Shown here: positions 1 to 63,870 of the stretch, in pieces
Position numbering within the stretch: the stretch's first letter is position 1
How the letters are laid out: every line of letters begins with the position of its first letter
From: Cyanidioschyzon merolae
Lineage: Eukaryota
Strand: one strand, 5' to 3'
Assembly: GCA_000091205.1 (NCBI GenBank)
Contig: AP006499.2
Length of the DNA stretch: 64,000 nt
Notes under the pieces: model-generated
What the model was told of the DNA's origin: nothing
Seen by the model: only the letters and a program-made list of their open reading frames with translations
The model's database searches: none
Translations under genes and position numbers: made by a program

Positions 1-69
1 ACTTGACCACAGACGCCTCCTAGAATTTTTGGACCGGCCACCTACTACTGGTTCCAACTTATTCTTGCA

Positions 70-2176
70 TCATTCCACCTTGAATGGTTCTCCCACAAAA
101 TTCTCTCTTGTCATCTCTGGAAGTCTTTTTTCCATCACCACACATTTCCTGATATTGATTGCGGCGTTAAAGTCTCGGTTCACAAACTCCATCCGTTTCT
201 TGCCATCATTGATTGTACTTACTAATGCAAGTCGCCCATGAACGTTCGCCCTCCTTTCCATTTGCTGTCCCGTCAGCGGTCCGTATTTTTCATATCCTCA
301 GGGCTCCGCTGGCACTTTTTTCATCTCGAATCTCTGAAGTGTGCATCCCAGTTCATGGTGTATATACAATGCTCGGAACTCATCGATCGGTAGCGGAACG
401 AAACGCCTTGCGCACTCCTTGTACGTTCTCGCCGGTGGAGCTGGTGTAGTCCCTTTTTGGGTCTTCCAGCGTCCTGCTCCGTTTGCCACTACGAGCCTCT
501 GACGTTCATCCTCCTTCAAGCCACTCAACTGATTGAAAAAGTTGGCAAACGCCCGCTGCTTCCCACAATACAGGTTCATTCGCAGACGAGCCCACCGAGG
601 CTTTGTATACTCTTTCCACAGCGCATCCCAATGAGCAACGCGACCTTCCATGAATTTCCGAAAAGCTTCAAAGTCCGCTCCTCGACTCGTCACCTTGCTC
701 AAGGCCTCCAGGTGCTCTTTCAGTTATGCGTTCCACGTCTCGATTTTATTCCTTGCATTCATGATTCTGGAATCTCGATAGTTTCTTGCTCTCGAGAACT
801 TTAAAATACTCATGCCTTTCTGAAGTAAGTTGCCGTGGATTCCATCTTCCGCACGCTTGGGTACTGCGGTGGTTATGATACTTGTGCCCCAGGGTCCGCG
901 CCAACGACAAGGTCGTTATCCTGCACTTTCTGCGTCGCAGAATCCGCCTCCTTCTCATCTTCATGCTTCGTTACGGGCGAGGCCGAGCATGGAACAAGAC
1001 GATCCGCCTTCAGGCGCCGACGGTGTACACACATGGATACCCCATCGGTTTCGATCACCCCAGCGAATACCTTTTGTTCGCTGACTTTCAAACGTTTGAT
1101 TTCGAAGATATTTTTCTGGTACTTCTCCCGGTTGACACCGGTGACCTCCTTCCTGCTAACCTTGAACTCCGGACAGATCTCCCTCATGATGCCATGAAGG
1201 ACTGCGGAATCGATGGTCACGAAATGTGCCCTGATGTTGCACAACGGAACCACGTTGAAGCGCTTCTCCATTAGGAACGCTTCCGTCTCTCAGACGCTTC
1301 ATTGTTCCCGCGATTCAGCTCCATCTCCGCCTTGGGTTCGAGCTCTCGGTCTGGGTGCACGAAATAGCGCATAATTAGGGGATATCATCATTTTTTCACC
1401 TTTTTTCATATCTGATACCTTTTCTGCTGGGTTGACCGGCCTCAAGGGTGCACGGTGCTCATGAATAGTCGCACGGATTATAGAATCCTCATTCGTGCAC
1501 CTGCGTGATGTCTTCTTGTCGACGAACTCGATCTCCTGTTCAAGCTGCCGATCGTCCGTCATCCCATTGGTGATGGCCCATCTTTCCTTCGCGAGAGAGA
1601 CCCGGTTGGAGTGCAAACACGGCGCATATCATGAAGCCCTGGAGGTTCATGGTTAAACGGTCTCCAAGTTCGTTAGGTACCGCATGGCCCCGTGGGTGTA
1701 AATATTCCAGTCCCTCTGAATCGAGTACCGTAGAAGCTGTAGAAGGGATGCTTTTCGTGGAGGGCATGCACCCGCTCATTTCCCCTCGAGGTTTCCCCTG
1801 TGGCGAGCACCAGGTGGCGAAGAAGGGTCCTGCTGAAAAATTCTTCCGGAACCTCGGCTGTTTCGATGTCGGCCACGTCTTCATTCATCTCCTTCACCAA
1901 ATGCATTAGCCCTGACGAAGCCTTTATAACACTCATGGAGTAAGACGCAACACGGTTTCTGGGAGTCTCTTGCAACGCTTCCTTGGACGGATGCTTGATA
2001 TGTTTAAGATGGCAGGCTTTGACAACCATCACGTCGTTGTGCCGTCTTTCTTGCAGCCTTTGACGTCGGGCCTCCTTCATTTGCTTCTTTGTCTCGTCCT
2101 GTTCCTCTTCGCACTGGACTGTGTGTTCGTTTGTATCCGCCAGCTGACGACACTGGGCCTCCAGGAGCCTCCACTT
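70..2176 (-). pseudogene. Fanzor1-like RuvC nuclease (TnpB homologue) ORF remnant of copy LA, about 690 codons in 5 frame-shifted pieces
   Basis: The putative ATG at 2176-2174 follows a 5' leader intron. An N-terminal K/R/E-rich (NLS-like) stretch precedes the ASSGLMHLV block, the RuvC-I D in GADPG, LVVANGAGRW at the expected RuvC-II position (no Glu), HHELGCTLQRFE, and NRDFNAAINI (RuvC-III). Confidence 0.55.
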
Positions 2177-2209
2177 TCACTCGCATAACTTTCCTTTTTA
2201 ATTTTTTTT

Positions 2210-2274
2210 CTGAAAAAGAACGCACCTTGAATGCTTCAGGTATAAACAGCGAAAAATCACTTGAATACACTTAC
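2210..2274 (-). other. Putative 65-nt spliceosomal intron in the 5' leader of LA (GTAAGT...TTTTTCAG)
   Basis: Minus-strand reading is CTCAAG|GTAAGTGT ... GCGTTCTTTTTCAG|AAAAAAAATT. An intron of identical length with a GTGAGC...AG boundary sits at the homologous position of L+ (61441-61505). Confidence 0.5.
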
Positions 2275-3119
2275 TTGAGGGTTGGAATACGATTGAACTG
2301 AAAAGCATACTTTGCTACGACTTCAATGCAAATACACCGCGTGCAGCAGAACAACACGCTCTTGATACCGATCGCGTTTCCGTTCAAGAGCAGCATGCGC
2401 GAAGTGTCTCGTGTAACTGGCTGATGTCTCTGGTGCACGTGTCCAGCCCCCTACAGAAAAAAAACAGAGACTCACGACTAACTGGCAACGATATGACAAT
2501 TTCTTTCCCCCCTCTAAGGTAAACGTTAAAAGGCGAAAAGGTTTCCATATTGTCGAAAGTTTATTTTATAGGCGAAACGTCCCGCGAGCCGGACGTGTCT
2601 GCCAGACCAGTGCTTCATGCGACCCCAGTGGAAGGTGCTTGCTGGAAACCCGAGCAACTCGTGCGAAATGCAGTTTATTATGAGACTAGGAGCGGGTATG
2701 CTGCGTCAGGGCGTCGGCCTGGTCGCAGTTATCTCCTTACATATCGCTTGGCGCTGCCGCAGGCACTAGGTCTGTCTGCAGAGCTTGCAGGCTCCCAGAA
2801 AGATTATGTACTCTGGCTCTGTATCGGGAAAAGCGCTCCTCGATTCGATGCCCTCTGTGGTACGGTAACGCGGTTTTGTCTCCGCGATCCATCTGTTCCA
2901 GCGGTTTAGGCGCCACTACGGGTGCTCGTGGTAGGTACTCGCGCACGCTAGAACGTAAAAACCGACCAGTATGTCCGAGATGAAGTGTAAGAGATGGATC
3001 TTAGTCGGCCGGGGCGGGAAGGGCAGCATGATGAGCGCTTCCTCGAAAGCCACTACCCATCCATCCCGAAATCTGGGATCCATGGTAAATGTAAACGTTT
3101 GTCATCGAAAAAAAACAGA

Positions 3120-4483
3120 TCGAAATTAATATGCAATTCACCGTTTAGATCGAAGACGAATTGTCTCTAGTATGTATATTCTTTATTGAAGAGTGCAATG
3201 AGGACTGCATGGTTCCTTCAGGTCAGTCATAGCAGGTCACTCAGGTGGTTGACGAACACTGAAAGAGACCAACAGATGCGCTACGCGCCGAAAACTGATA
3301 TTCTTCAGGCCTGCTTGCGGTCAATGATAGAAAATGGTCCGTTGATAATGCTACCGAAGAGCAAAAGCTATGATAATAGACGTCAAGTAGGTGTCTCTGT
3401 TTCTCACTAGTTTGTTCATGTGGTCCAGCATACAGGGGGATACAGTCGCAAGAAAGTCCTAGTTCACGAACGGTCATCTTCCAATGAAATCGCAACGACA
3501 GCGTTCCTGGAGCTCAGCGATCGGGACAGAGTACAGGAACGTCGGGTTGTTTCAGTTGATGAGATTTCCTTTCGACAAAACGGTCGGAGCATGTATAGGC
3601 ATTTGTGGGGAAAAGAGCCTGTTATATATACGATCGAACTCGAAAATAACTCGGACCTCATTATCTGTTCTAGCTGCAGTCGATTCACTCTCCGGCCTCA
3701 GTCCCGCTCGTAGAGAAGGCTCATCCAACAGCACCAACCATTCCGTCGAATCATTGAAGACTTTTCCCTCACGTCTCGCGACGTTTTTCCACTGAAAAAC
3801 GTGGTATTTCAGCATTACCGTCGCGGTCGAGTTTTTGCCGATTCTGTCGGGGTAGAGTTGGTTTTCATTTCTCCGTGAGCTCCGTGATTCGGTCCCATCG
3901 AAGGAGAGTTTTCGATCGAAAAAAGGTAATGATCTCTCCACTGGGCGAATTGATGAAGCGTCCAGCACACGATGACACCGCGGACAATGTCGTCTCTCTT
4001 CTGCAAGTCTTCCTCTTTCCGGGAAGGTCCTCATTTAGGCACATTCAAAAGTGCGCCCATTCGCAGAAAATGAGGGATGAACTGAGGTGTATATTTCAGA
4101 AGGTCGAGATTGAGAGAAGGCAGCGGAGCGCTTCGGTGATAGGAAAGCACAGAGGGCTGACAGAGCACCACATGACGCTGAGGGTGCGAATTCGAGGACT
4201 ACTTGCACTGGTGAGTTCAACCAGCAGCAAAAAACGCATGAAGTTCGTGAATGGTGAGTTTAACACTGAGAAAAATACAAGGAGATGTGCATTGTTGAAG
4301 ACGAGACGCGAGGAGCTGACGCGAGCGAACTTTATGGGGTAGCCTCTCGGGTTCGAGGTGTACAAGGAGAAGCTGAAGCCGATCGCAGGGTGCCGGCCAA
4401 ATACGGTTTGAAGGCGCCTGCCGTTGGGCGAATATACATACTCAAAAGTCGTGGAATGTTGTTCGTTATACTGGAAAGAATAC
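3120..4483 (+). mobile_element. Short TnpB/Fanzor2-like element copy S1 (degraded, about 1.36 kb)
   Basis: The 5' end (CGAAATTAATATGCAATTCACCGTTTAGATCGAAGACGAATTGTC) is shared with S3. The interior has RuvC-I-like VLAAVDSLSGLSP and the C-terminal sequence MRDELRCIFQKVEIERRQRS...RGLLALVSSTSSKKRMKFVNGEFNTEKNTRRCALLKTRREELTRANFMG (degenerate RuvC-III). The conserved 3' block at 4373-4460 includes CGGTTTGAAGGCGCCTG and GCGAATATACATAC, and the 3' end TACTGGAAAG matches S5. There are multiple frameshifts. Confidence 0.65.
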
Positions 4484-5755
4484 TCGTAGTCAAACCATGA
4501 GGGCTCACCAACGCATGGGTACTTTTAACAACATCAAGCGTTGTTTTGGGACGGCCTCTTCCACTCCTTGCCGCTGGATTTCGTTACCTCACCGCCACCA
4601 AGATGAGTCGTGACGCCCGCTACAAAGCGCTCCTAAAATAACCGATACCACTATGCAGCGCATTCATAAACCACTGCGCGCTTCTCCTTTTCTTACGAAC
4701 AGCACGCTCAAATACCCCATTCATCTGGCTCTCCGTCTAGCGGTTCCATGGCAGCTCGTGGGCGCACCAGATCGCGCCCCTATATCGCGACGACGAACAC
4801 CCGACGTCGGCCGTTCACGAGTGTTCTCAGACACTCATGCCGAAAGCCCAACGGGGTTCTCACGTCAAATACTCCTCTCCGCTCTCATCGCACGCCCCCC
4901 TCTCTTCGCGCCCGTCGACGAGCCGGCACTCAACAGCGACACCGTATGTCTCTCCAGCTGCAGGCTCGCTACGGCTCCCGCGTCTCCCGTTTCCATGGGA
5001 AAGGGGCCTTGGACGCGGGCGCGCGCCGTCGCAGCGGCCGCCTCCAGCAGAGTTTGCGTCACCGCTCTGCACAGCGGGAGCGTAGACGGATCGAACCAGC
5101 TGGGCTGGATATCTCCAGCGCGGATCTCCCTCTTGGTGCCCCGCCTCATCGTGGTCAGCATTGCGTTGCACGGATTCTCCCGCGGACTGGACAGCGTGCG
5201 CGTGCGCATGCGCCCGCCCAGAATACGCGCCGTGCGGATCGCCCCGAGCGAGCCCGGGGTCTGTCGGTACCGCACGAGACGCCGAGACGGAACGAGGGCG
5301 TCGAGGCGACCCTTCTGCATCCGCCAACGACATGTATCGGGCGACGAGGGAGGCCCTCGGTGGATGAGCTTTGTCGGACATGTTGTCACACCTTACCACA
5401 GCCGATCATGGCAGCTACGTTGTGCGTCTCGAGGCTGTACACAGCGAAGATGGCAATGGCAAGCAAAGCATATATCGTGACGACCGCCTCTGGATGAACT
5501 GTTTCAAGAACACCTGGTGGCAGCGAAATCGGGACTTGAACACTGCCATCAGCATCCTTCAACAGTCGACAACGGACTCCGAGGGAGCGGAGCGTCCAGC
5601 ACGCTGACTGGCGGACATAAGAAAGGAAAACGGAGCATTTGCAGAAAGAGTCTGCGAGGGCTGGTGTGCATGACAGTACGATGAAATCCAAACCTGTGCG
5701 AGTACGCCCGTGTCAGGATGCCTGTTCCATTTCATCCCGACATGCGTGAACGTAC
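4484..5755. repeat. Direct repeat R1 (1272 bp), about 99% identical to R2 at 10861-12156
   Basis: Near-identical ORF artefacts (4653-5497 vs 11030-11895) confirm the identity. R2 has a 21-bp insertion (about 11738-11758) and a 3-bp indel at the right end. R begins immediately after the S1 3' end. Confidence 0.85.
5386..5755 (-). repeat. C/H-rich coding-like module of repeat family E (copy a), embedded at the right end of R1
   Basis: Minus-strand translation HVGMKWNRHPDTGVLAQVWISSYCHAHQ...DGSVQVPISLPPGVLETVHPEAVVTIYALLAIAIFAVYSLETHNVAAMIGCGKV is homologous at aa level to 40480-40902 (+), 15170-15613 (+), 11784-12156 (-) and 60990-61165 (-). Confidence 0.6.
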
Positions 5756-23054: not shown

Positions 23055-24505
23055 CTGCACGCTTTCTGGAGCGAAAAGTTTCGCGACCATAGAATGTACA
23101 CAAATAAACCTACTCACAGAAGACACCCAGCCTTTTTTGACGGACTGCATGCTATCGGCTTCAGCAACCCCTTGCACAGTTTGAGCCTTAGCGGTTGCGC
23201 GACAAAGTTCGCTCGCGTCACCTCCTCGTGTCTTGTCTTCAGCACTGCACATCTTTTGGTATTGATGGCGACGTTACCGTCTCGGTTCACGAAATCCTTG
23301 CGTTTATTGCCTCTGCTTGAACTCAGCATTGCAGGGATTGCTAGAGGTCCTGCCTTCTATGAAATCAAAGTCTCGTTATCGTCTCGTTGAGCAAACACAT
23401 TTTCTCGCCTTTTTCCGTTCTTCTTCTTTATCACTCGCTCTTCTTCGGTTGGTGGTCGGCGTGAAGAGGATCTTTTTTTTCGTTCCTTTTTTGTGGAACC
23501 CGGCGACACCGGGCCTCCAGGATCCTTGACGTCCGTGACCATACCTATTCCTCGGATTTTTTTTATTTGAAAATGAACGCACTTCTTTATGCCCTTAGAT
23601 GAGGGCCTTCCTGGAGCGAGCAGGATTTGCGGAACAAAAACTACTTGTGCCCCGGTGTGTCACCGTGCAGAACGCTCCAGGGACTCGCCCAGTGGAGCGA
23701 TCATTATGTTAAAGGATACAAAACACTCCTTCGATGAGGTTGAAACACGTAGAGCACGGAGGAATGAAAAGCAGCGCTATCTGGATAGAATCTGCAAAAA
23801 CTCGAACGCATCGGAAATGGTGCAATGCCACGTTTTCCAGTAGAGGGAAGTCGGCGGACGTCAGGGAAAAGTCTTCAATGATTCGAATTTGCGGGTGCTG
23901 TTGTATGAGTCTCCTGTACGAGCGAAACTGAGGCCGTCAAATGGATCAACTGCAGCTAGAATAGACGATGATGTCCTCGTTCTCCTCGAGATCGATCGCA
24001 CATACAACGAGCCCCCTCTTTTTGAATACCCATATACGCTTCGGCCGTTTCGTCCAAAGCAAGTCTCATTTACCGGCGAAACAAACCGCCATTCCCGTGC
24101 TTCATACCGATCGCGACGTTTCAGGGATGCTGTCGTAGCGATTTCGATGGACGATGGTCGTGCATGAGCTAGGACTCTTTTTTTGCGACTGTATCCCAGT
24201 GTTTTCAGTACCACATGAACAAGTTTTTGAGAAACAGATACACTCTTGGCGGCTACTATCGTCGCTTTTGCCTCCCGCAGGGTGATCAACGGGTCGTATT
24301 TCCACCATGGACCGCAAAGAGTCTTTAAGAATATGGCTCTTGGCGCGGAGCGCGTATCCTGTGATCTTTCAGTGATCCTCAACTATCTGAGAACTGCCGT
24401 ATGACTGACCTAAAAGAAAAATACGGTCCCCCGTGCACAATGAAGTAAGGAATATATATCCTCCAGGCAGTTTGCCTTCGAATTATACGGTACGATGTAA
24501 CTTGA
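23055..24505 (-). mobile_element. Short TnpB/Fanzor2-like element copy S2 (degraded), with a K/R/E-rich insertion module
   Basis: The 5' region (minus) matches S4. The interior has ILAAVDPFDGLSF (RuvC-I-like). The C-terminus is KRKDFVNRDGNVAINTKRCAVLKTRHEEVTRANFVAQPLRLKLCKGLLKPIACSPSKKAGCLL, and the conserved 3' core CTGAAGCCGATAGCATGCAGTCCGTCAAAAAAGGCTGGGTGTCTTCTG is the reverse complement of 23117-23166. An extra module (23376-23582, MRSFSNKKNPRNRYGHGRQGSW...RASDKEEERKK) is shared with S5. Confidence 0.6.
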
Positions 24506-24935
24506 TATCGATCTGCCGCTCGTACTGCGAAAAAGCATTCGATGACACGCATCAGCGGTGGAACAGAATTGACCTGAAAGTCCGCAGAAATCGAACAATC
24601 TTTCAAGGTTTTGTCCATGATTCTAAAATGTGATATATTGGTCCATAACGCATTGCACGCCAAGCGATCGCGAGCGCCGCTCCCCATGTAACGAGCACCG
24701 ACGCGCGTCTGACGCCGAGCCCGGGCCAAAACTCGAACCGGTGCTGCGCAGCGACGGCCGCGACACGATGTGGCGAATGCCGGCGTATTCGTCGACACTT
24801 TGTAGACGCTCTAGCGCAGGCTTTACGTAACGAACTTTTTCTGATCGAAAACCAAAACTCAGTTTGATCGTACCTTGTGCACGCGTGGACAGTAAAAACT
24901 TGTATTGGGACCGATAATTGTCATAGGACGCGACC

Positions 24936-27211: not shown

Positions 27212-28570
27212 GAAACCTGGGCAGGCAGTGAACCTAGCAAGCCGGCTTCAAAGGTTTGTTGCACGTCGAAGCGCTCATGAAGAAACCGTTTATCGCCCAA
27301 CACCGTCTGCGCAAGCTGGAACCAAATGAAGCGTTCTAGGATGTTTTCAGGATGTCGTACTGCTAAACTGTCAGCGTTGCGTCCGCAATGCAGCGGTTTG
27401 TGCTGCGCTCTATGATCGATGAAACCTGTGCGAGACAAATATGCTTCCGAGCGACCATCAACGGTGCAGGTCATAGAGCCAATCCATACCTGACAGGTCG
27501 AGAAGAGCATCGATCGATCCTCTGGCAATGCTCCATAGCGAAGACATGTGAGCTAGACTGCGTGATGCGCGACACCCCGAGGATCCATTCGCCCCCGGTC
27601 TTGGAGCGCCCACATGTGAGGTCGAAGATAAAATCACGAGCGCCCAGGTTCTCTTCAGGTATCTCCGCTTTCTTCCGTTGTGTCTATCTCCGGGAGGGAG
27701 CTCCCGTAAACCCAGAAACAACGCGGTAATGAAGAATCCATCGCACAGGACTCGAATTGCTGCTCGAGTGTTGCAACATTCGAGGCACTCAACATCGGGG
27801 TCGTGCATCTGCTTGACATCGCGACGTTCGTGGTTGCGTGCCTTTGCCTATTCGGAAGCTCTAGCGCACGCATGTACGGTGTGCGTCAAGCCGTCACTCC
27901 CTCATACATGGGAAAGCCCTGCTCTCTCTGTGCTGCATCCGCAACTTCGCTATAGGCGCTGTTGCGGACGCTCACGATAGAGTCGGTGTGTGATGGAACG
28001 TACGAAATGACTTGTATCTCCGGGGGGAATAGCGAGTGCTGGAACTTGTAGGTGGGTAGAATTACGGGCGCTTTCCCGATCGCCACTATCAAGCTCAATC
28101 GGAGATTCCTGGTCGCTAGAAAAGTTCTCTCAACAAGCAACGTACAGCGTTCTGGTTCGATGTATGCGCAGCGCCGTGTTCACGTCAGGTTCTGGCGCAG
28201 AAGCGTCGTATGGCTGTTTCCACCGCCGTGGCGGATGCCTTGCTCCAAGCACCAGGTATACGGTCACATTATTGGTACTGACAGGGAAGATGCCTCTCTA
28301 GCGCCGATTCCAACTACGAGATGCTACGTACTGAACGACCTGTGCTGGCGTTTCAGCATACCCAGAGCGACGCCGCATCGGATGCTGCGGAACGTTCTTC
28401 AGTGACATCCTGCACGTGGGTGAAACTGGACGCCCTCTCGGGGACGCGCACTGCGCGCCATCTGCGACACACACCGCGTCCGTTCTGGGTCCGTAGCTGT
28501 GGTCAGTGGGGTTTGCTTGACGACCTGGCGCTTAAAGAGAGCGCAGCATAAATCCGGGTCTGTCTGCTGA

Positions 28571-29230
<660 letters not shown>

Positions 29231-30232
29231 CCTGTAAGGCGATCTTGGCGGTGCAGCACTGAAGGGTTTCAAGGCCCTCGGTTAAATGTCTCAAAGTTCC
29301 GCGTACTAGGCGCGGCGCACGGAAGGCGCGCAGTCGTGTTCGTACCCTAGACTGGTACAGGCTGTGAGAATCTCTTCTCTATCATGCATCCGTCGCAGTA
29401 CGTTCTTTAAGGAAATGCATTTCTATCAAAGGACCTCGGTGGTCCTGGTAAACGAGTAGGGCGATGGTTCCGGAAAAGGCTGAAGGGCGACGGTGCTGTG
29501 CCAGCGCCGACCGCCTTCTTCGTACTAGCGCCCGCTTCTGGCTCTGTAACGCTTGCCTTAGCACTAGCAGTCGCTGACGTCGTGCTCGCTGCACCATTTC
29601 CAGTGGATGCTCTGTCATGTGTTTGCACGCTCTGTGCGGAAGCCGTTTTTGGTGGTTTCTCCGCCGCACTTGACGAGGACCCCGCAGTGCTACCGGCATC
29701 CGTTGGTACCCGAGGCACTACTCCAGTCGTTTGTTTCCTCTCAAATGCTGGCAGCTGGCCGTTGCGAATACGACTGCGAGCTGAATCAGCTCCGGGCATT
29801 GGAAGGCGCTTCTTGCCAAGTTTGCCGCCTCGAGTCAATATCCAGCCGTCGCCGCCCCAGACTCGGTCTGCGCGAAGCACCAGCAACGGGCGGCTGTTCT
29901 GCGCAGAGATCGAGCTCCGCCAGCTAGTCTCGTGAAGTGCATGCGCGCAAAACCCGATGACACCTATTGAACCGAGTGTTCCAAAGGACTGCAACGCACT
30001 CAACGCAAAAGCTTGGCACTGCATGGAGAGGCTCAGACACCCTGAAGGAATTGATGAATAAAGATCAAGCGCAGCTAACTGTGGAGCCGTAGCGGCGGTC
30101 GGCGCTCTGCGGCACACGCGGCAGTGGGTAGTTTAAGAAAAACAACAAAGCGGACATTCTCTTGCGGTGTCCGTGTATAGGGTCTTTCATCTCAATTTCG
30201 TTCCGCCTCTGCTACGTTCTGTAGAAGAAGGT

Positions 30233-31620
30233 CGAAATTATTGTGTAATTAACCTTTTAGATCGTAGACGAATTGTCAGTAGGGTACGTATTCTTTACTA
30301 AACAGTCCACGGAGAACTGCATTCCTTCTTCATGTCAGACATTCCACATCACGCAGATGGTTGCGGAACACTGGAAGACAGGCATAGACGCGCTCTGCGT
30401 CAAGAACCGATATTCTCCACGTGTGCTTCCAATCAACGGTAGAACACGATCCTTTGATCACCTTTTCCGGAAGTACAAAGCGACGATAATAGATGCCACC
30501 AGCGCCTCTGTTTCTAAACAGCTTGTTCATGTGGTCCAGAATACACTAGGATACTGTCGCAAGAATGTCCTAGTTCAATCACCGTCATCTCCCATGGAAA
30601 TCCCAGTTACAGTGCTCCTTGAACATCGAGATCGGTATGAAGCACAGGGACGTGGGTTTTTTTCCTCAGTCAATGAGACTTGCTTCCGATGAAACAGTCG
30701 GAGAAGATACGGATATTTGCGGAGCGGGGCGCCCGTTCCATATACCATCGAATTCGAGACGAACGACGAAATCATCATCCGTTCTAGTTGTAGTGGATTC
30801 TATTTACGGCCTCAGTTTCGATCGTGGGGAAGGCTCATACAACAGCACCAACCATTTTGTCGAATCATTGACGATTTTTCTCTAACATCTGGCGACGTCC
30901 TTCTACTGAACAACGTGGCATTTCACCAGCCCCCTCGCGGTCGAGCGTTTCCCGATTCTATCGGGATAGAGCTCGTTTTCATTCTTCCGTACGCTCCGTG
31001 ATTCAACCGGAACGAAGCAATCTTTTGTATCCTGAAATGCAACGATTGCTCCACAGCGAGATTCGCTGAAGCGTCCAGCACATGGTAAAACTGGGCCACA
31101 TTATGTACCATTTGCGCAAGTGCTTTTTCTTCCGGGAAGGGCCCCACCAAAGGCCATAAAGAAGTGCACTCACTCTAAAAGAATTAAGGGATGAGCTGGG
31201 ATGCACACTTCAGATGCTCGAGATTGAGAAAAGACTGCAGAGCGCTTTGGCGACAGAAATGTACGAAGACATGATAGAGCACCAAATGGCACAGAGGGCC
31301 TAAGTGCGCAGATTCCTCGCATAGGTGAGTACAAGCGGAAGCAAGAAAGGCATGAAGTTCGTGACCCGAGATTATAACGCTGCTATCAATATCAGGAGAT
31401 TTGCGGTGCTGGCGACGAAATCCCGGAAGCTGACGCGAGCTTCCTTTAGAGGGTCAGCATCTCAGGCTCGAAGTATGCTGGGATAAATACTGAAACCGAT
31501 AGCAGGCAACCGGTTGAAAAAGCCTGGGAGGCGTCTTCTGGTGGATATGCATATACCCCCACATGGCGGTGCGAAATTTTTTATTTCACTGAGGGTATGT
31601 ATTTTGATGGACTTAAATAG
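30233..31620 (+). mobile_element. Short TnpB/Fanzor2-like element copy S3 (degraded), with an intact RuvC-III motif
   Basis: The 5' end CGAAATTATTGTGTAATTAACCTTTTAGATCGTAGACGAATTGTC matches S1. The interior has VLVVVDSIYGLSF. The C-terminus is LRDELGCTLQMLEIEKRLQS...KKGMKFVTRDYNAAINIRRFAVLATKSRKLTRASFRG. The 3' core at 31491-31552 is CTGAAACCGATAGCAGGCAACCGGTTGAAAAAGCCTGGGAGGCGTCTTCTGG. Confidence 0.65.
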
Positions 31621-37723: not shown

Positions 37724-38427
37724 CTATTGTGGCGAGTTGGCTTTTGCCCAGGTTGCGACCAAGGCAAGCTCACGACTATATTTCCACAGCAGTGCTGGCT
37801 TTCCTCGAGCGAGAGCAACCTGCGCGCAGCAGTCTCAGATCCGACTCCGCTTCCCCGGGGCGCGTAGCTTCTAGAGTGGTGAAAACATTATTAACACAAT
37901 CCGTGACCTGTATTGAAATTGTGCAAGCTAACCAGATTCAAGTAACGGGTAATAAATATAAAAATAAATCTTATCGTCGTCATTCAGGACGTCCAGGAGG
38001 GATGAAGATTCGTTATTTTTATCAAATAGGTGGAAAAAGAGCATTGGAACATGCAATTAAAGGTATGCTTCCAAAAGGTGTGAAAGGTCGCCAATTGTGG
38101 CGAAAAATTCGTATAGAAGCTTAGAAAGAGTTATGTATGCCATAGGAAAACGTAAATGTGCCATCCCCGGGGAAGCAACCAGCCTGTATCGTGTACCAAG
38201 CTGCAATCCATATTTGTGCATATTAATTCTAAACATTCCACGATTGAACTGGATCCAGTGCAGCCTCGAATCGCGATGCCACCCTGGCGGCTAACCTGCT
38301 GCGCGTACCTGGCAGCTAAAAATGATTCTTGTTCCTCTAGTTGCTTTCAACTTAATTCAGTTCCAACCCCGCTGTATAAAATCGAATGATTTTTCTCAGT
38401 GTAGAGCACGAGATCGAGGTCACTATG

Positions 38428-39788
38428 TAATTTATTGTGTACATCTTAGATGAATAGCCTGTAGGATATATTCTTTAGTAAACAATCCCTGCAGGACTGT
38501 ATTTATCCTTCAGGTCAGTCATACAACAGTACTCAGACGGCTCAGGAACACTGAAAGAAAGGAGTATATGCGCTCCGCGCCAAGTACCGATATTCTCAAA
38601 GCATGGTTGCGGTGAATTGTAGGAATTGGACCCGTTGATCGTTTTTTACGGAAAGCAAAAGCGAAGATAATAGCGAACACGGGCGTCACTTTTCTCACGA
38701 GCTTGTTCGGGTGGCGCTGAAAACAGAGGTATACTGCCGGAGAAAAGAGCCCAGTCTCATGCACGGCAATCTCCCGCTGAAATCGCCTCAGCAGAACTCC
38801 TGGAACGTTGCGATCTGTAAGAAGTAGAGGAACTCCGGATCGTTTTCTCTGTCAATCAGACTTTATTAGGAAAATACGGTCGGTGCGTGTATGGGTATTC
38901 GCAGAGCAGGCAGCCGGTTGTATGTAAGATGAAACTCACAGAGAACGAGGATATTATCATCTATTCTAGCTGCGGTGGATTTACTTGGCGGCCTCGGTTT
39001 CGCTCGTAGAAGAGAATCATGCAACAGCACCTGCTACGTCGAACCATTGAAGACTTTCCCCTGACGTCTCACGACGGCCTTCTATTGGACACCGTAGCAT
39101 TGCAACATTCCCCTTGCGTTCGAGCTCTTGCCGATCCTGTCTGGGGTAGAGCTGCTTTTCAATCCTTCATACACTCCCTGGAAAAATCCAATCGAAGGAA
39201 TGTTTTCTATTGTGAAACGTACTGATCGCTCTACTGGACGAATCGCTGAAGATCTCAGCACATGGTTACACCGAGGCACATGTCGCATGTCGTCCGCAAG
39301 TCCTCCTCGCTCCAGGAAGGTCCTCACCTCAGGGCCTAAAGATTTGCATTCATTTTCAAAAACCAAAAATCTCAGGGATGAGCTGGGGTGCACGCTTCAC
39401 AAGGTCGAGATGGAAAGAAGGCAACGGATCGCCTCGGCGATGGAAATGGACAGAGACATCACAGAGCTGCAAGTGGCATTGAGGGCGCGCATTCGAGGAC
39501 TCCTTGCACCGATGAGTATCACGAGTGAGAAGAAATGCATGGAGTTCGCGAACCGAGATTTCAGCGCCATCGTCAATATCAGATGATGTGCGGTGCTGAA
39601 GACAAGACCCGAGGAGCTGACGTGATCCACTTTTTGGGGCAGTATATCAGGCTCTAAGTGTACAGGGATAGAAACTGAACCTGACAGCAGGATATCGGTT
39701 GAAAAAGGCTGGGGCATCCGCGAATGGGCGAATATATACCATCCATAGGCGTGAAATGTGTATCCTTTTTCCTGCAGTATGTATTCAT
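38428..39788 (+). mobile_element. Short TnpB/Fanzor2-like element copy S4 (degraded)
   Basis: The 5' region is shared with S2. The C-terminus is LRDELGCTLHKVEMERRQRIASAMEMDRDITELQVALRARIRGLLAPMSITSEKKCMEFANRDFSAIVNIR*. The 3' core at 39675-39725 is GAAACTGAACCTGACAGCAGGATATCGGTTGAAAAAGGCTGGGGCATCCG, followed by GCGAATATATACCATCC. Confidence 0.6.
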
Positions 39789-42439: not shown

Positions 42440-44800
42440 CACACCAGCGACACGTGCCAGTTGGGAATCGAGTGCGATCACTCCTGGCGGCTGAGATTCT
42501 TCTCGACGGTCGTCTTCACCGTTTCAGCGCAACGCCGACACTGAGTAATGAGCGATTTCCTCGAAATTTCGCTTGAGACAGAGCTGCTGAAAGCTCAGGA
42601 AGCACGAGAAGTTTCCGGACGTTGGTCGAGATCTTCAAGTCACGATGCAGAAACCGCTTGCCGGAATGCGTAAAGTTGGAATCACAGCCAAGAAAGCATC
42701 TCATCTTCATCCATGATGGCATCTGACGGTGAACCGGCGTACCGAATAATATCTCGTACACCCAGTTCAGTTTCAATGTATTTTTTTCGACCTGTTCCCG
42801 CAGGCGCCCATGCACATGTTGCCTGGATGCCGTAAAAAACTGATCGATGAGACTCACATAGAATCGATTCTAGCACTTGTCATGCGCTCTCGTTGAAGGC
42901 GTGGGAGTGAAGCCTTTTAACGGTCCAGCACGTTCATAATAATCGGATACCATCAAACGACACGATTTCTCGGTCATATTCTTTCCCAAGTCATTGAAGA
43001 AGTTGGCAAATGCGCGCTGCCCTGCCCTGTACAATTAAAACCGTTGGCGGCTCGAGCACGTTTCCATATGCGCCCAACAGGAATCGTACGCATGAGCCAC
43101 TTGGACGCATTCGCATTCTCTGACTGGAGAAAGCAAAGCATTGTCCCTGCTCGACAAATTGCCAAGGGCGTTGAGACTGGTCCTGAAGCTGCCATTCCGC
43201 CCATTGGTATTCCTAATAGCGCGCATCATTCTCGAGCCCAGATGGTATCGACCTCTGGGAAATTGCTTTTCTTGATCTACTTTCTGTTCATGTATTTAAC
43301 TTGGCCCTCTTTATTTAGAGGTACCCTGGCAGCCATGGCGGTCTTAAATCGGCGATCTATGCCCCTGAAATGATCGTTCTATTCATCTTCTCTAAAGATT
43401 AAAAACGAGTCATGTTGCTCGACTCAGTCCTAGGTTTCACGAGTTTCTTGATGTCCTCCCAGCTAAATTCTCTGCCGGTCTCCGTGGTCCATGTAAAAGC
43501 TTTCCGTTTCACCCCTGTAGACGAGAAACCTTGCACGAGCTCCGCCGATGCTCTTCCCGATATTGTTGGAATGCGTCGTGGTTTCTCGCAGAGGGCAACT
43601 CTATCTTCACCTTTCTCGCTCCATGGCTGGCCAGCATGAACGTTGTTGCTCAGCTTCACATCCGTTTTCCCCGCAGAATCCAGACGCACCGTCCAGACGC
43701 ACTGCTCCGAGCGTGTTACCGAAACTTGCCCTCTCTATTCATGTATCCTCTATTTCTTAACTAAATTTTCGCTTTCTGCTCCGTCGCGAGCATGCCCATG
43801 AACCGAAGCGCGCCTTTTCGCTTCCTCTCTCGCATGAGTTGAGGAGCAACGCAGCAGTCGTGGTGTTTTGAAAGCAGAGAACGATTTTGCGAAGACCGCT
43901 ATCACGGATGCGAATGACTCTTCTGTATCATAGATCATATAAATTGCGTTTGACGGTAGAGTAGACACCTTTGACTGGACTGGGCCAGGGAGAGTAAATA
44001 CGCACGAAGAGAAGCTCAAATCTTGTCCCAGCAGTGTCCCGCTAACCGTTTTGAGTAATATGAAGCAGTGTAATCTAGGAACAGGAAACAGGTATGTGGG
44101 AAGGAGCCGCCCCGAGTTATGCCTCGAGAAATGATGAGCTATTTAATGATTCATTCAGTTTGACCATTCGATTCATACACCGCCGAGGCTGATAATGGCG
44201 GATTACTCGCTTTTCTAGTCTTCAGAAATAGTTATTTGCCTCTTGCTGAGTGCCCGTGTAGAGTTCTCGCATTTCTCTCGAATGCAGTCTCATCTAGTGA
44301 TTCGAAAACCCATCTCCAATCTAATGAGCGCTCCTATTTTAGTACCAATTCTACACCATGCTGCTCAGCGCGCGATGGTTTCCAGTAGAAGCGCGCGTTT
44401 TGCTTTATACATCCACGTCTCTTCGCCACCGTCCGTTCCAACGATGCGAGAAGCTCATTTCCTGTCGATTTTTCAATGTTATTTCTTAGGGAACGTATGG
44501 AGTGGCGTGAATCGGCTACGGGGCAGCCTTGCACATAGTGATCGGATGGTTCTGTTTCGTCGACGCGACCTCCGGGATAAAAGCTAAGATATGGATGGTC
44601 CATCCCCTTGTTGATCCATTGAACGACTAACCTCGTCGAGTAAGTTTTTATTTCTCGCCAGCTAATATTGACAGTATAAAGCCTTTCCATAACCTTTCCC
44701 TAATCTACAGGATACAATACTTTCGTTAAATACCCGCTAGAAGAGCAAACATAACCAGTAAGGTTGCGGTGATCCAGATAGTCCAGAATTCACTGCACTG
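42440..44800 (-). mobile_element. Long TnpB/Fanzor1-like element copy L3 (diverged, degraded)
   Basis: Minus-strand segments align to LA/L+: 44334-44690 (YSTRLVVQWINKGMDHPYL, about the ASSGLMHLV block), 43750-44019 (...DGAESENLVKK, about GDGAESREQ), 43399-43689 (VKRKAFTWTTETGREFSWEDIKKLVKP, about VRKIEFTGETSETYWKNIFDIKHLK), 43035-43229 and 42880-43040 (VQVAHAYDSCWAHMETCSSRQRF*...QRAFANFFNDLGK, about VRVAHWDALWEEYTKPRW...QRAFANFFNQL), and 42516-42857 (RFYVSLIDQFF...GKRFLHRDLKISTNVRK, about RDFNAAINIRK). The 3' core at 42472-42530 resembles the family block. Confidence 0.55.
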
Positions 44801-51471: not shown

Positions 51472-52000
51472 TTGTATCGCCAGTAAAATGGACAACATTT
51501 CATGATCATAGAGGGAAAATATATACCTTCTCACAGACGCTTCCCAGCCTTTTTCAATCAGTTGCCTGCTATCGGTTTCAGTGTTTATCCCCGCACGCGT
51601 CGAGCCTACGAGGCTATCCCAAGAAGTTGGATCGCTCCAGCTCCTTGGGTCTCGTCTTCAGTGCGACACACCTTCTGATATTAATGGCGGCGCTGACGTC
51701 TCGGTGCAAGAACTCCACGCGTGCATTGACGCTGGTTAAACTCGCCACTGCAAGGATTGCTGGAAATCGTGCCCTCTGTGTAACTACAGTCTCGTCATCG
51801 TCCCGTCTCGTAAACACCTTTCCTCGCCTGTCTCCTCTTTTTTCTTCTTCGTCACTTGCTCTGCTTCGCTCAATATTCGGCGAGAAGAGAATTTTTTCCG
51901 TTTCCTTCAGGCAGCCAACGATGACGGCCTTCCAGGATCCGGGACTTCCATGCCCATGCTTTGTCCTTGGATTTTTTATTTCTTCAAATGAACGCACTTG
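51472..52000 (-). mobile_element. 5'-truncated short TnpB/Fanzor2-like element copy S5, closest to S3, with an intact RuvC-III motif
   Basis: Minus ORF 51614-51997: MRSFEEIKNPRTKHGHGSPGSW...RASDEEEKRGDRRGK (the module shared with S2), then ...PAILAVASLTSVNARVEFLHRDVSAAINIRRCVALKTRPKELERSNFLG. The 3' core (reverse complement of 51523-51578) is CTGAAACCGATAGCAGGCAACTGATTGAAAAAGGCTGGGAAGCGTCTGTGAG. The tail GAAATGTTGTCCATTTTACTGG matches the S1 tail. Confidence 0.6.
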
Positions 52001-52208
52001 GGGTCCATCTGCGATAAACCGCGAAAAAGCATTTGCTTACACGCACCTGGGGTCGGAATATCATTGAGGTCAAAGACTAGAAGCAGAATCCTCTGGGTAC
52101 TTACGCGGGGCGTCGTCCCTCTGGCGAACTTGCGCTCGGAGAGGCGCGCGGATTGTTTATGCAGATTCTCGCGTTTCAACGCATATCAAAAAGGTTTCCG
52201 CAGGCCTC

Positions 52209-58880: not shown

Positions 58881-60989
58881 ATTTACTTGTGTCGATGTGT
58901 AGAACAGGTGAGCAGTCCAAAGAGCACACAGCATTGGATGGGTGCGATAGCCATATGGCTATGCTGATGAAGTCTGTGACGAGGTCCCTCTGCTTAATCG
59001 CTGAGAAACTTTTCTCGTCCGATACAGTGCCTTGCATGGGTTTCGGATGTTCGGCTTGAACGCTGTTTCCGTCAAAACGCCGCACGGGTGCAACCGCACG
59101 AAACCTCTCCCAGCCTTTAAACATCTAGGGAGCACCCCCTTTGGATTCTACGCTTCTACCAGCGAGCAAGCAAGAGAGATTTTTGCTGATGATTCAGAGG
59201 CCGTCAGAATAATTAGAAGGGTCTTCCTTAACGTTTACCCGAAAGGCTGTAGCACGCCAGCTCGACAGGAGTCTTCAAAAAAGCTCAAAGTGTTGACAGT
59301 ACGTGAGCGAAGAGCAACTGCACTCATGCAAACGTCTACCCCTACACCGCATGGAGACTTTCCAGTATGCGGGATTCTTGGATACAGCATCCTCCAAACC
59401 AGTGGGAAAATGAATTTTACTTAACGCGTCCTTGAGCCGCCGCCCGCGAGGGTGCTGTAAAGCTGCGCTGCCTCTGTACGACGTGCACAGACCCGCGCCT
59501 CGCACCCGAGAGAGCCCCCACTGGAGACTAGGCTGCTGGAGAGCCGCGTGCTCGATCAAGCCAATATTCCACAGGCGTTTCCATGACTAAAGCTGGCTGA
59601 GCGAGGAAATGCCCGTGGGTGAGGTGAATTCTCTGTTCTGAGCATTGAGAGTACGTCCACATCAGTGGAAACTTTTAGAAGCTTTCATCTAAATGAAATA
59701 ATTAGTGCATTTACCTCATCGGGCTGTGCCCGACTCATGAAATGACTAAGCGTTTGAACTAGACTGTCTCATTTCCGCACCAATGAAATGGCGCTTTTTT
59801 CCCGCGGAGCTGTTTGTTCACTTACGTTGTAGCTGTATATCAACGAATCCAATCATCACTATCCAAAAGCTGAGTTGCAGTTGGATGCTGAGGAAGAAAT
59901 CACTGTAGCAATCGAGGCCTCCGTAAGTTAGACCGACCCCACCCGTGTGTCAGAATAAAACGGAACGTCGCACTGCTCGCTTTTCCCATGCCTTTCTAAT
60001 TTTAGCCCAATCATTTCTTAGATGCGCATCCTCCGCACTCAAACTAAAATAATAAAAGTTTACAGGTTCACTCGTGGTTTTTTTGGATTCTCGTTCGTTT
60101 TTCCGTGGTAGCTTGTTCGACTCTTTGTTGCTGGAATGCGTTTCTTTGTCGAAATCATAATGATTCACGACGCCATTGAACAAGGATTCGTAAAGTACCC
60201 GATTATATTATCCAGTTGATACGTCCAAGATTCCATTTTTCTCCTTTCTTTGCGTCTAGTACGATGAAACAGCGCATTCTTCAAGTGTTTGACCTTTCTG
60301 CTTCAAGACAGCTGGAGCGCGTAGCAACTTGCACCGCTGGATTGACGACGACGAAGAAAATTCGACATCGTCCCTTGAATAGCGTTTCGTAAACGCACGC
60401 CAAACGCTCACTGAACCAATCACAGCAAGTAATCGATGCGGTTCGAAAAGCAAGTCCTTCCCTCTTGATCGCCATCGACGAAACGGGATTCCGCCGCAAT
60501 TATAAGCTATCTCTCACGGGACCCGCTCCCAGAGGCACCCATCTCATTTTCCGCGCGGAAAAGGTTCTTGGACTAGAACTAGAGTCGTCGCTGCGATCGC
60601 TTCCACTCGGGATTCCGTCACCGCTTTGAGCCTGGGGGCGTACACGGATCGAGATCTCTCGAGCGCTTTCACAACCTGGAGCTTCCTTCTGGTACTTGTT
60701 TCAGCATGGTCAACATAGCGTTCCGTGAATCCTCTATCGAATAGAACAGCGAGCACTCGGGCGCGCAGCAGACATAGTACTCGCCAAGTAGTCACCCAGC
60801 TCAAGCACGTCATCGTAGAGTTCGCCGTCGGACCCGGAAACGGAGGAGCGAACGGACAGGACCCTTTTCTGGCTGTCAAATTGGCATGTGCCGAACGATG
60901 AAGAAAGGGTTCATGATCTGCAGGGCGACCCTTTGAGGAACAGTTTTCGGGTATATAGGGGAACACTTGACCACAATCAGATGTCATCG

Positions 60990-61165
60990 CCGCGATGAGC
61001 GCACCGCGACTTTACGCGAGGAAGACGCAAATGGCAAGCAAAGCGTAGATCGCATCTCCCTTTCGAGCATTAGATGCGTGAGCAGCAGCCGGAAGCAGTG
61101 AAATGGTGGCTTTGACACTGCCATCAACATACTTCTACTTCTGAAAACGGAGCTAGAGGGACAAG
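60990..61165 (-). repeat. Partial copy (d) of the E-family C/H-rich module, directly upstream of L+
   Basis: The minus-strand translation DGSVKATISLLPAAAHASNARKGDAIYALLAICVFLA* matches DGSVQVPISLPPGVLETVHPEAVVTIYALLAIAIF of copy a. The nt motif GATGGCAGTGT(C/T)(A)AAG is shared. Confidence 0.5.
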
Positions 61166-61440
61166 AGAATTCTGCGTTGCTACAGGCGCATATGAGAGAG
61201 ACAAGGGAAGTAGTCAAACATCATGCCCGCCAAGACTGGTATTGACGAAAGTGAGAAGCGACCCAAAGCCTAGTCTTTTCTCCCGAGTTAGAGGGTCGGT
61301 CCTCGTTTGTTCAGAAATGAGTGTAGATCTGCCTCCACGTTGGGGGCCTATTAATGAAATGATTCATAATCCGCGTCCTCCTGCTGGCAAACCTGCTCTT
61401 TCTACTTATGGTCTATCACCTCAATTTAGTTCCAATCTCA

Positions 61441-61505
61441 GGTGAGCGTCATCGAATGCTTTTTCGCAGTTTTCAGCAGGAGCATTGGAGTGCATTCATT
61501 TTGAA
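61441..61505 (+). other. Putative 65-nt spliceosomal intron in the L+ 5' leader (CTCAG|GTGAGCG...TTTTGAAG|)
   Basis: Same length and position as the LA intron (GTAAGT...CAG). A leader of about 25 nt precedes the ATG at 61531, as in LA. The upstream ORF 61242-61445 cannot be spliced in frame, so exon 1 is non-coding. Confidence 0.5.
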
Positions 61506-61530
61506 GAAATGAATAATCCAAGGTGAAGCT

Positions 61531-63678
61531 ATGGATATGCAGGACAGAGATCCTGTTCACCAAGTGTCGCCGGCTGCCAGAGAAAAGCAAAAAGCAGTGT
61601 CTAGTCCAGAGGAAAAGGAGAGGACAAGAAAGAAACGGCAGGTGGCCCGAAGTCAATGGCCGCAAGAAAGACGAATGTACGACGATACGGTGGTGATAGC
61701 CTGTCTTTTCGGACATATCACGGATACGTACGAGGAAAAATTGCGAGACGCCATCAGAAACCGTGTCGATTCGTACTCCATGAGTACTAGAAAGGCGTCG
61801 TCAGGGCTAATGCATTTGGTGATGAAGATGAACGAAAACGTGACGCACATGGAAACAGTCGCGGTTCCGGACGAGTTTTTCGACAAGACCTTTATTCGTA
61901 ACCTAATGCTTGGCACAGGCGAAACACGGAGAGAAAATAGCGGGTTCACGCCCTCCACGAAAATTATGCCGAACTCCGCTTCGAGGGTACTCGAAACAGG
62001 GGTGACCAGGATATTTACGCATGCGGAGCGATGAAGTATCTCACGAACCTGAAGAACCATTTGACGATGAACCTCGAACGTTCCATGATACGCGCCGTGG
62101 TTGCACTCTACTCGGGCCTGTCTCGCAAAGGACTGCGGGCGATTATCAATGGCATCACGAAGGATCGCAAGCATGAAGATGAGATCGAATTCGTCGACAA
62201 GAAGACGTCACGCAGGAGCACAAATGAAGCGTCTGTAATCCAAGGGGTTATAAAAGAGCGCCGTACAGTGTTGGGGCTGGCGAATCCAGTAGAAGAGGTA
62301 TCAGATATGAAAAAAATGAAGAGAGACACTATCGCCTCGTCCTGCGATATTTCGTGTTTTTGGACCAAGAGGTCGAACGCAAGAAGGAGATGAAGCTGAG
62401 TGAGCAAAAAATGAAGATTGGGAGAGACGGAAGGCTGCCCTGACGGGGAAGCGCTTCAACGTCGATCCGATATGTAACGTCAAGTCATACTTTGTGGGTA
62501 TCGATTCAAGAGTCCTCCATGGAATCATGAAGGAGATCAGTCCGGAGTTCAATGTAAGGAAGATAGAGTTCACTGGTGAAACAAGTGAGACGTACTGGAA
62601 AAACATCTTCGATATCAAACATCTCAAAACGAGCAAGCAAAAGGTATTTACTGGGATGATTGAAACCGATGGAGTAGCCTCGTGTGTGCACTATCGGCGG
62701 TTGAAGAAAGATCGGCCAGTCCCTTCGTCGGCTGCGCCCGTTACGAAGGATGAAGAAAACAATGAGGAGGATCCTGCGATGCAGGAGGTGCAGGATAACG
62801 ACCTTGTCTTTGACATGACGAAGGATGAAGAAAAGAAGAAGGCGGATCCTGCGATGCAGAAAACGCAGGATAACGACTTTGCCGTCGGCGTGGACCCTGC
62901 GAATACGAATGTCATAAGTATCGCAGTACCTAAGCGTGCGGAAAACGGTACTGACGGTAATTTACGTCAGAAAGACATGCGTCTGTTGAGATTCTCGAGA
63001 GCGAGATTCTATTGGGAATCGGGAATAATGAATGCGAGGAAGAAAATCGACACTTAGAATGCAGGAATGAATAATCACCTGGAAGCTTTGAGCGAGGTGA
63101 CTAGCCGAGGAGCGTACTATGAAGCCTTTCGGAAATTCATGGAAGTTCGTGTTGCCCACTGGGATGCGCTGTGGGAAGAGTATACTAAGCCCCGGTGGGC
63201 TCTTTTGCGAATGAATCTATACGGTGAGAGGCAGCGGGCGTTCGCGAATCTTTTCAATCAGTTGAGCGCCCTCAAAGAGGATCAAAGTCAGAGGCTGGTA
63301 GTGGCATACGGAGCACGGCGATGGAAGACCAAAAAAGGGTATACGCCAGCTCCAACGACAAGAACGTACAAGGATTCCGCAAGGCGTTTCGTCACGATAC
63401 CTCTAGATGAGTTTCGAACATTGCATACACACCATGAACTGGGGTGTACATTTCAGAGAGTGGAGATAGAAAAGTGCCAGAGGAGCCCTGAGGATATAAA
63501 AAAGTATGGACCGCTGACGGAAGAGCAAATGGAAAGGATTTCGAAAGTTCGTGGACTACTTGCATTAGTAAGTAAAACCAGTGATGGTAAGAAACGTATG
63601 GAGTATGTGAACCGAGATTTTAATGCCGCTATCAATATTAGGGAATGTGCGGTGCTGGAGAATAGGCCTCCAAAGTAG
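61531..63678 (+). pseudogene. Fanzor1-like RuvC nuclease (TnpB homologue), about 690 codons in 4 segments (61531-62034, 62031-62393, 62494-63057, 63067-63678)
   Basis: N-terminal K/R/E-rich region, then the ASSGLMHLV block. RuvC-I is DNDFAVGVDPANTNVISIAV. LVVAYGARRW lies at the expected RuvC-II position. The Cys/His cluster is HTHHELGCTFQRVEIEKCQ, and RuvC-III is GKKRMEYVNRDFNAAINIRE. A +2 frameshift at 62031, a stop or frameshift near 62391-62403 and an in-frame TAG at 63679 (PPK*TRENFIGQPLKVE...) disrupt the ORF. Confidence 0.65.
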
Positions 63679-63836
63679 ACAAGAGAGAACTTTATTGGAC
63701 AACCTCTCAAAGTGGAACTATATGAGAGAAAGTTGGAAGCAGTGGTGGATGCCCGGTCCGAAAAGACGGGGAGGCGTCTGCACGTCAGCTGGAGAGGATT
63801 TGTCTAAGGCGCGCTGATCGCCACTACTGTCCACCG
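63679..63836 (+). ncRNA. Candidate omega-RNA (guide RNA scaffold) region of L+, conserved with the 3' blocks of all seven other copies
   Basis: AAGTTGGAAGCAGTGGTGGATGCCCGGTCCGAAAAGACGGGGAGGCGTCTGCACGTCAGCTGG (63731-63792) aligns with the reverse complement of 1-62 (LA) and with the S-family core CGGTTGAAAAAGGCTGGGAGGCGTCTTCTGG. The conservation persists where the overlapping ORF tails differ in stop position and frame. Confidence 0.4.
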
Positions 63837-63870
63837 CCGGCGAGCACGCGCTCGTGCGCGTGCTCGCCGG
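63837..63870 (+). other. Perfect 15-bp inverted repeat (hairpin) CCGGCGAGCACGCGC-TCGT-GCGCGTGCTCGCCGG at the 3' end of the L+ conserved block
   Basis: Read directly from the sequence. Its position suggests a 3' structural element of the candidate RNA, a terminator, or a subterminal transposon hairpin. Confidence 0.75.

Follow-up and report, generated by a model that had tools for sequence, protein, structure and literature searches.

The window analysed here, 64,000 nucleotides of contig AP006499.2, is nuclear DNA of Cyanidioschyzon merolae 10D, with three long open reading frames (ORFs) identical to the annotated proteins BAM82022, BAM82030 and BAM82035. Both of its ends, and several places inside it, are occupied by relics of a transposon family that carries a TnpB/RuvC-type nuclease gene. 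When the window was compared with itself, positions 10-2287 on the minus strand matched 61430-63780 on the plus strand with 73-81% identity, and the protein reconstructed from the right-hand copy, L+, found six further partial matches within the window. The original prediction, made by a model from the letters of the DNA, had placed homologous TnpB/Fanzor-like copies at these sites and had read them as a decaying family, and our analysis supports both statements. Using the consensus DNA and protein from the supplement of Bao and Jurka 2013 (PMC3627910), we aligned the left-hand copy, LA (1..3107, minus strand), to positions 1-3088 of the CMe-1A consensus with 83-84% identity by blastn and global alignment, and L+ (61407..63860, plus strand) to positions 786-3169 with 84-87% identity. 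Both copies thus have nucleotide similarity along the published consensus, by which membership of CMe-1A is judged. The best explanation of the whole, which we consider very likely, is that LA and L+ are dead copies of the published CMe-1A and that the window records an old, decayed Fanzor1 family together with a dead family of short elements.

CMe-1A is the Fanzor1 element of C. merolae described by Bao and Jurka, who reported about 150 copies with about 80% identity to a 3169-bp consensus, a single-exon ORF of 734 codons, no terminal inverted repeats (TIRs), undetermined target duplications and a 5' part of 635 bp common to TE-N2_CMe, and who remarked on its 'long lasting coding capability' (PMC3627910). 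The window copies agree with this description in the intron-free 734-codon ORF, the lack of TIRs and the identity of about 80% to the consensus, and there is no essential difference, except that L+ lacks the 5' 785 bp and contains a 75-bp in-frame duplication, and that both window copies are dead. Nozaki et al. 2007 had described, in the same genome, a 253-copy interspersed repeat of similar size (about 3.2 kb) with a WSV486-like ORF truncated in all copies, and transcription of this repeat family was reported (PMC1955436). That study missed the TnpB/Fanzor nature of the repeat ORF and listed the DDE transposase relics apart from the repeat, as eight class II elements. The repeat family, its decay and its age are therefore already known from the literature. 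At least 14.7 kb of the window (23%) is made up of repeats, compared with about 5% published genome-wide for this repeat family, and the region is thus unusually rich in transposon relics.

Lesions of the two long copies

LA reaches position 3107, about 930 bp beyond the end at 2176 that had been assigned to it, and its last 80 bp or so fall beyond the window start. The Fanzor1 pseudo-ORF of LA occupies 1..2186 on the minus strand (ATG at 2186-2184), and the 5' module at 2461..3107 (minus strand) corresponds, with 83% identity, to consensus 1-635, the part common to TE-N2_CMe. Alignment to the consensus revealed about ten frameshifting indels (window 2126, 1713, 1662, 1586, 1398, 1281, 888, 322, 292 and 10) and four stops in the consensus frame (1390, 1387, 726 and 72), and the RuvC-I GADPG and RuvC-III NRDFNAAINIR motifs are still readable. 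Two lesions that the original prediction listed for LA could not be retained. First, there is no frameshift at GETSRGNE/PSTKSIPS, as PSTKSIPS is the +1 reading of HALHEKHPF, and the real 1-bp deletion lies about 20 codons after the GETSRGNE region, at window 1713. Second, the two TGA codons said to lie in frame between segments 2 and 3 belong to an out-of-frame stretch between the indels at 1398 and 1281.

The pseudo-ORF of L+, placed by alignment to the consensus, occupies 61531..63807 on the plus strand and is broken by three 1-bp deletions (61925, 62315 and 62403) and three stops (61938, 63055 and 63676), with an in-frame tandem duplication of 75 bp at 62743-62881. Here the lesion expected at 62391-62403 was recovered, at 62403, while the shift placed at 62031 truly lies at 61925. 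The in-frame TAG is also present, but at 63676-63678 and not at 63679, and the deletion at 62315, the stops at 61938 and 63055 and the duplication had been missed.

Each long copy therefore bears 6-14 disabling lesions, and since LA and L+ have no lesion in common, they were disabled independently, as had been proposed. It also holds that every copy in the window is disabled, and the damage is heavier than listed (about ten frameshifts and four stops in LA, three and three in L+). The statement that lesions differ between copies is right for LA and L+ and wrong for the short copies described below, which share frameshifts and stops.

We also considered whether the frame breaks could be introns, programmed frameshifts, effects of a variant code, or sequencing and assembly errors, the genes being functional. 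Many of the breaks are indeed 1-bp indels, and one lies within an A-run (consensus 1691-1694), which would suit such a view. However, the frames of relatives are uninterrupted over the same positions, so that introns do not explain the breaks there; the break positions vary between copies; and the host genes end in TGA and TAA, which supports the standard genetic code that had been deduced originally. Introns, programmed frameshifts and a variant code were rejected on these grounds. Errors fare no better. Two short copies beside the DAHP synthase gene, at 31 kb and 23 kb, recur with all their breaks in eight independent metagenome assemblies, the former with 99.5-99.9% identity and no gaps in seven of the eight, the latter with 97.6-98.9% identity, and their lesions are therefore not assembly errors. 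For LA and L+, ten errors within 2.2 kb are not plausible in the sequence of a genome that was finished from telomere to telomere and has introns in 0.5% of its genes (PMC1955436). The original prediction was thus right to treat the lesions as real, with short copies matching at 97.6-99.9% across assemblies and a finished host sequence, and functional genes behind these breaks are extremely improbable.

As a separate observation, the 23-kb copy with its adjoining mini-element (23104-24583) varies more among natural strains, with indels, than the surrounding 21.5 kb (99.5-99.7% identity) in the eight syntenic contigs L082-L089, which is consistent with unconstrained sequence.

Relation to Fanzor1 and the 3' block

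Fanzor1 proteins are the eukaryotic relatives of TnpB, an RNA-guided RuvC nuclease, and the guide RNA is encoded at the 3' end of the element. Pfam gave no match to the reconstructed L+ protein and only a sub-threshold Cas12f1-like_TNB match to its relatives, and searches of the PDB with single sequences and a small profile gave no match. A protein search returned 36 close relatives, all metagenomic, and a second search from the most distant of them returned 240 more. With a profile of 122 relatives, the PDB search found PpFz1 of Parasitella (E 5.6e-19), SpuFz1 of Spizellomyces (E 5.7e-11) and GtFz1 of Guillardia (E 0.056). In addition, an AlphaFold model of the relative P0001 was obtained with a mean predicted local distance difference test (pLDDT) score of 83.7 and a predicted template-modelling (TM) score of 0.82, and its top seven Foldseek matches in the PDB were all Fanzor1 structures (E 2e-16 to 3e-13), with Cas12 far behind. 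Judged by homology to experimentally characterised Fanzor1 proteins, CMe-1A is a Fanzor1 element, and the P0001 model has the predicted Fanzor/TnpB fold, with a split RuvC and REC and WED-like parts. The ancestral CMe-1A protein was presumably an RNA-guided nuclease.

The published Fanzor1 motif is D-X(125,275)-[TS][TS]-X-X-[C4 zinc finger]-X(5,50)-RD (PMC3627910). The CMe-1A consensus carries D (GADPG), TS (DEFRTSYT) and RD (NRDFNAAIN), of which D and RD are also found in LA and L+; in LA, TS is replaced by AL and the last finger Cys by Val. Compared with SpuFz1, PpFz1 and GtFz1 (PDB 8gkh, 9cf0 and 9cer), the modelled fold is alike (TM 0.48-0.67 at the E-values given above), and the RuvC-I D, the DEFRTS motif and the RuvC-III RD motif are shared. 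In contrast, identity to these three proteins is only 12-15%, the C. merolae family has HH..C..C in place of C4, and P0001 carries a long disordered acidic repeat linker at residues 390-469. This acidic KHEE..ADPATQEVQDND stretch separates the N-terminal half from RuvC-I. It forms tandem repeats (two in L+, at window 62743-62881, and four in P0001) and is predicted to be disordered, with pLDDT below 50.

The 3' block of L+ follows the stop codon at 63808..63870 on the plus strand and contains the hairpin H1 (63808-63822) and the terminal hairpin H2 (63837-63870). For a wider view of this block, and of the family as a whole, we used a census sample of 81 loci (L001-L081), comprising the 80 best of 344 related stretches in hot-spring metagenomes of the Joint Genome Institute (JGI) plus L001. 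In the 3' ends of these loci, CMe-1A copies carry two hairpins after the stop codon, and homology stops a few bases past the second. In H1, one pair swaps CG to GC (14 sequences to 14), and H2 occurs in at least three sequence versions, all of which pair. RNAalifold on a MAFFT alignment of the 3' ends recovered H1 alone, since the versions of H2 fall in different registers there. H2 was instead assessed by folding each copy, and relative to dinucleotide-shuffled sequences the mean z was -2.27 (24 of 38 copies were below -2). By analogy with TnpB and Fanzor, the H1/H2 region is where a guide-RNA scaffold would end. Over the whole window, Rfam gave no match at the gathering threshold and no tRNAs were found.

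Such pairing raises the possibility that the copies, dead as protein genes, are kept for some other role, either as transcribed repeats or as a guide-RNA or terminal-hairpin module that works in trans together with some rare intact Fanzor or transposase. The pairing of H1 and H2 was kept through sequence change, leader and 3' tail are precisely the parts left in the short copies and mini-elements, and transcription of the repeat family is on record (PMC1955436), all of which would fit a retained role. However, conservation of the 3' region (79-88% identity to the consensus) does not exceed that of the ORF, the S-type 3' ends of the short copies differ and are without H1 and H2, and no intact partner protein was found in the 81 loci or in a collection of 5.8 billion proteins. 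We therefore regard a retained role as very unlikely and prefer to read the copies as decayed remains of CMe-1A and its companions.

Short copies, mini-elements and other relics

Besides the long copies, the window holds four short copies, about 70% identical to one another, which does not agree with the original description of the family as highly similar any more than the 73-81% identity between LA and L+ does. In the 4-kb copy (3117..4459, plus strand; originally S1), a DDE_3 transposase pseudogene runs into the final ~115 codons of a Fanzor gene. The others are the 31-kb copy (30229..31540, plus strand), with an orthologue in eight metagenome assemblies, the 39-kb copy (38344..39774, plus strand; originally S4), and the 23-kb copy (23572..24583, minus strand), which consists of the 5' leader and DDE_3 part only and is joined to a mini-element at 23104-23584. 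The lesions foreseen in S1 and S4 were both found: the 4-kb copy has a mutated RuvC-III, with NGEFNTEKNTRR where NRDFNAAINIRR is expected, and the 39-kb copy has the stop in NIR*CAVL. Only 10 bp separate the 5' end of LA (minus strand, 3107) from the start of the 4-kb copy (plus strand, 3117), which is 5'-truncated, and one element was probably inserted in the leader of the other.

The short-copy consensus matches Pfam DDE_3 with 48.7 bits in a single frame and 61.4 bits after repair of a shared frameshift pair, well beyond the gathering cut-off of 28.6. This compensating pair is common to three short copies and shifts the frame over about 50 codons of the DDE core, and the 4-kb and 31-kb copies also have two stops in common. 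The first catalytic D is changed to N in three of the four copies and the second to K, N or E in three of the four. Each copy further has 3-6 private frameshifts and, when read in the consensus frame, contains 8-11 stops, a part of which fall in frame-shifted stretches. None combines intact D-D-E/D catalytic residues with an open frame. The ratio of nonsynonymous to synonymous divergence (dN/dS) between short copies is about 1, a noisy estimate that rests on 33-87 codons per segment. Given the shared lesions and this ratio, the transposase gene of the template had already suffered frameshifts when the short copies multiplied from it, and they have drifted neutrally since. The nearest intact relative is a 259-aa DDE_3 protein, P0206, and no intact short-type ORF was found in the 5.8-billion-protein collection.

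Following the DDE_3 part in the same frame, the short copies carry the last ~115 Fanzor codons and a 3' block, and upstream they have a leader of about 70-85 bp that resembles CMe-1A consensus 786-870; leader, last codons and 3' block are those of a sister Fanzor element. No terminal inverted repeat joining both ends was found in three short copies. The short copies are thus a DDE_3 (IS630/Tc1-like) transposase gene joined to a Fanzor tail, and they form a second, equally old and fully dead family.

Two mini-elements, at 23104..23584 and 51481..52088 (both minus strand), have the same structure: a leader and the initial ~60 Fanzor codons run directly into the final ~70, behind which comes an S-type 3' end. 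The second was originally named S5 and considered 5'-truncated, but it is internally deleted instead. Since the two are only 70.6% identical to each other, this internally deleted derivative is old, and it exists in at least two copies. A TE-N2_CMe-like fragment at 27908..28132 (minus strand) corresponds to consensus 4-232 and is present in the eight syntenic assemblies. Furthermore, an older composite relic at 42558..44615 (minus strand) has a DDE_3 remnant at 43934-44615 and, after it, a Fanzor-like RuvC half at 42558-43265. This RuvC half shows about 30% identity to CMe-1 and reads HRDLKISTNV instead of NRDFNAAINI. A DDE_3 relic of a third family lies at 60153..60749 on the plus strand, directly upstream of L+ on the same strand, and related relics of that family, with 64-69% mutual identity, lie at 15817-16390 and 41079-41367, both on the minus strand.

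The repeated adjacency of DDE_3 and Fanzor sequences suggests, though it does not prove, an ancestral two-gene element of transposase and Fanzor like PUl-1. In PUl-1 and PGv-1, which are two-gene Mariner and Fanzor1 elements, a DDE_3/Tc1-mariner-type transposase gene lies upstream of Fanzor1 on the same strand (PMC3627910), and the same order is seen in the window at 44615-42558 (minus strand), at 60153-63860 (plus strand) and, in fused form, in the short copies. Unlike PUl-1 and PGv-1, the elements here have no TIRs that could be found, just the final ~115 codons of the Fanzor gene are left in the short copies, and all are dead. It is conceivable, though doubtful, that CMe-1A itself descends from a two-gene DDE_3 and Fanzor1 ancestor and that the chimeras and mini-elements were non-autonomous riders using Fanzor or transposase supplied in trans. 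Two modules would then be required in cis, and keeping them would be the reason why these elements survive: the leader of ~85 bp, and the Fanzor 3' tail together with the 3' block, which may have served as a guide-RNA scaffold or as a terminal hairpin. If this is true, the as yet unclassified CMe-1A would gain a superfamily, and guide-RNA-only satellites of a Fanzor would have a eukaryotic example.

Apart from these elements, the window contains a direct duplication of 1.27 kb (4484-5748 and 10861-12146) without a convincing ORF, whose two members flank the genes at 6067-7902 and 9067-10368. The members are 98.1% identical, and no other repeat pair in the window comes close to this similarity.

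Age and decay of the family

The divergence of the long copies is considerable. Between LA and L+, synonymous divergence (dS) is 0.50 and nonsynonymous divergence (dN) 0.22, and dN/dS is 0.45 over the whole ORF and 0.29 in the RuvC half; against the consensus, it is 0.40 for LA and 0.33 for L+. As these ratios are well under the value of about 1 expected if copies of a single master had decayed neutrally throughout, most of the divergence arose while the lineages were still coding. In the census, copies at least 97% identical were merged, leaving 50 distinct copies with LA and L+ counted, and their median pairwise identity is 80% and their median nearest-neighbour identity 85%. Even the nearest of the 48 other distinct copies is only 80% identical to LA and 84% identical to L+. 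No intact copy was found among the 81 related loci, a typical one having 3-4 frameshifts and about three stops. A per-position conservation profile was unreliable at consensus 1-690, where global alignment forces flanking DNA onto the consensus. Several of the census metagenomes carry contigs 99.5-99.7% identical to 21.5 kb of the window, and these metagenomes therefore sample C. merolae populations.

The best census locus, L002, has a single stop, and L001 is open over 819 codons, with the ATG lost and a stop at codon 700. Codon 700 of the consensus, right after ENF[VIM]G, is a stop in the 4-kb short copy (4340-4342), in the 51-kb mini-element (~51617) and in L001 (8257-8259), and the consensus ORF may thus be able to do without its final 34 codons, or these may mainly encode RNA.

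The original prediction had called the family recently active, which would mean near-identical copies that have just started to decay and intact masters still present. The different lesions in LA and L+ would be expected under a recent burst, near-intact relatives exist in L002 and L001, and some CMe-1A copies were reported as intact by Bao and Jurka (PMC3627910). However, this view is already contradicted by the divergence: LA and L+ share 73-81% identity with a dS of 0.50, neither exceeds 84% identity to any of the 48 other distinct copies, the 50 distinct copies have the low median identity given above, and identity to the published consensus is about 80% (PMC3627910). Moreover, each long copy bears 6-14 disabling lesions, none of the 81 fetched loci is intact, and the short copies, at about 70% identity, have a dN/dS near 1. 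We thus consider a recent burst very unlikely. Instead, the low mutual identity and the lack of an intact locus among 81 mean that CMe-1A is an old family, almost wholly dead, with few near-intact members. Its lineages diverged for a long time under purifying selection on the nuclease gene, and single insertions then decayed independently through 1-bp indels and nonsense mutations.

Intact master copies, expected elsewhere by the original prediction, were sought in the metagenome loci, where none of 81 is intact and the best has one stop, and no intact short-type ORF occurs among the 5.8 billion proteins. On this point Bao and Jurka (PMC3627910), who report some intact copies, and Nozaki et al. 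(PMC1955436), who report all 253 as truncated, conflict, and intact masters may or may not exist elsewhere in the genome.

Several points weigh against the account of an old, dead Fanzor1 family and its dead short companions. The census of metagenome loci is a proxy for the 10D genome; no orthologue of LA or L+ occurs among the 89 fetched loci, the best matches being 77-82% identical. The zinc-binding segment HHELGC...EKC has two His and two Cys (HH..C..C) and is not the canonical C4. For the short copies, besides the few codons behind their dN/dS, one 35-codon segment read in the derived frame gives 0.3-0.5 next to segments at about 1, in a small sample.

The value of this analysis is mainly corrective, and its additions are of modest use. 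The proxy census adds that in natural C. merolae populations no intact copy was seen in 81 loci. Recognition of the short copies as chimeras of a DDE_3 transposase and a Fanzor tail hints at which transposase once moved these TIR-less elements. Finally, dN/dS values of 0.29-0.45 indicate purifying selection over most of the divergence of CMe-1A, which fits a Fanzor1 protein that did something for its element.

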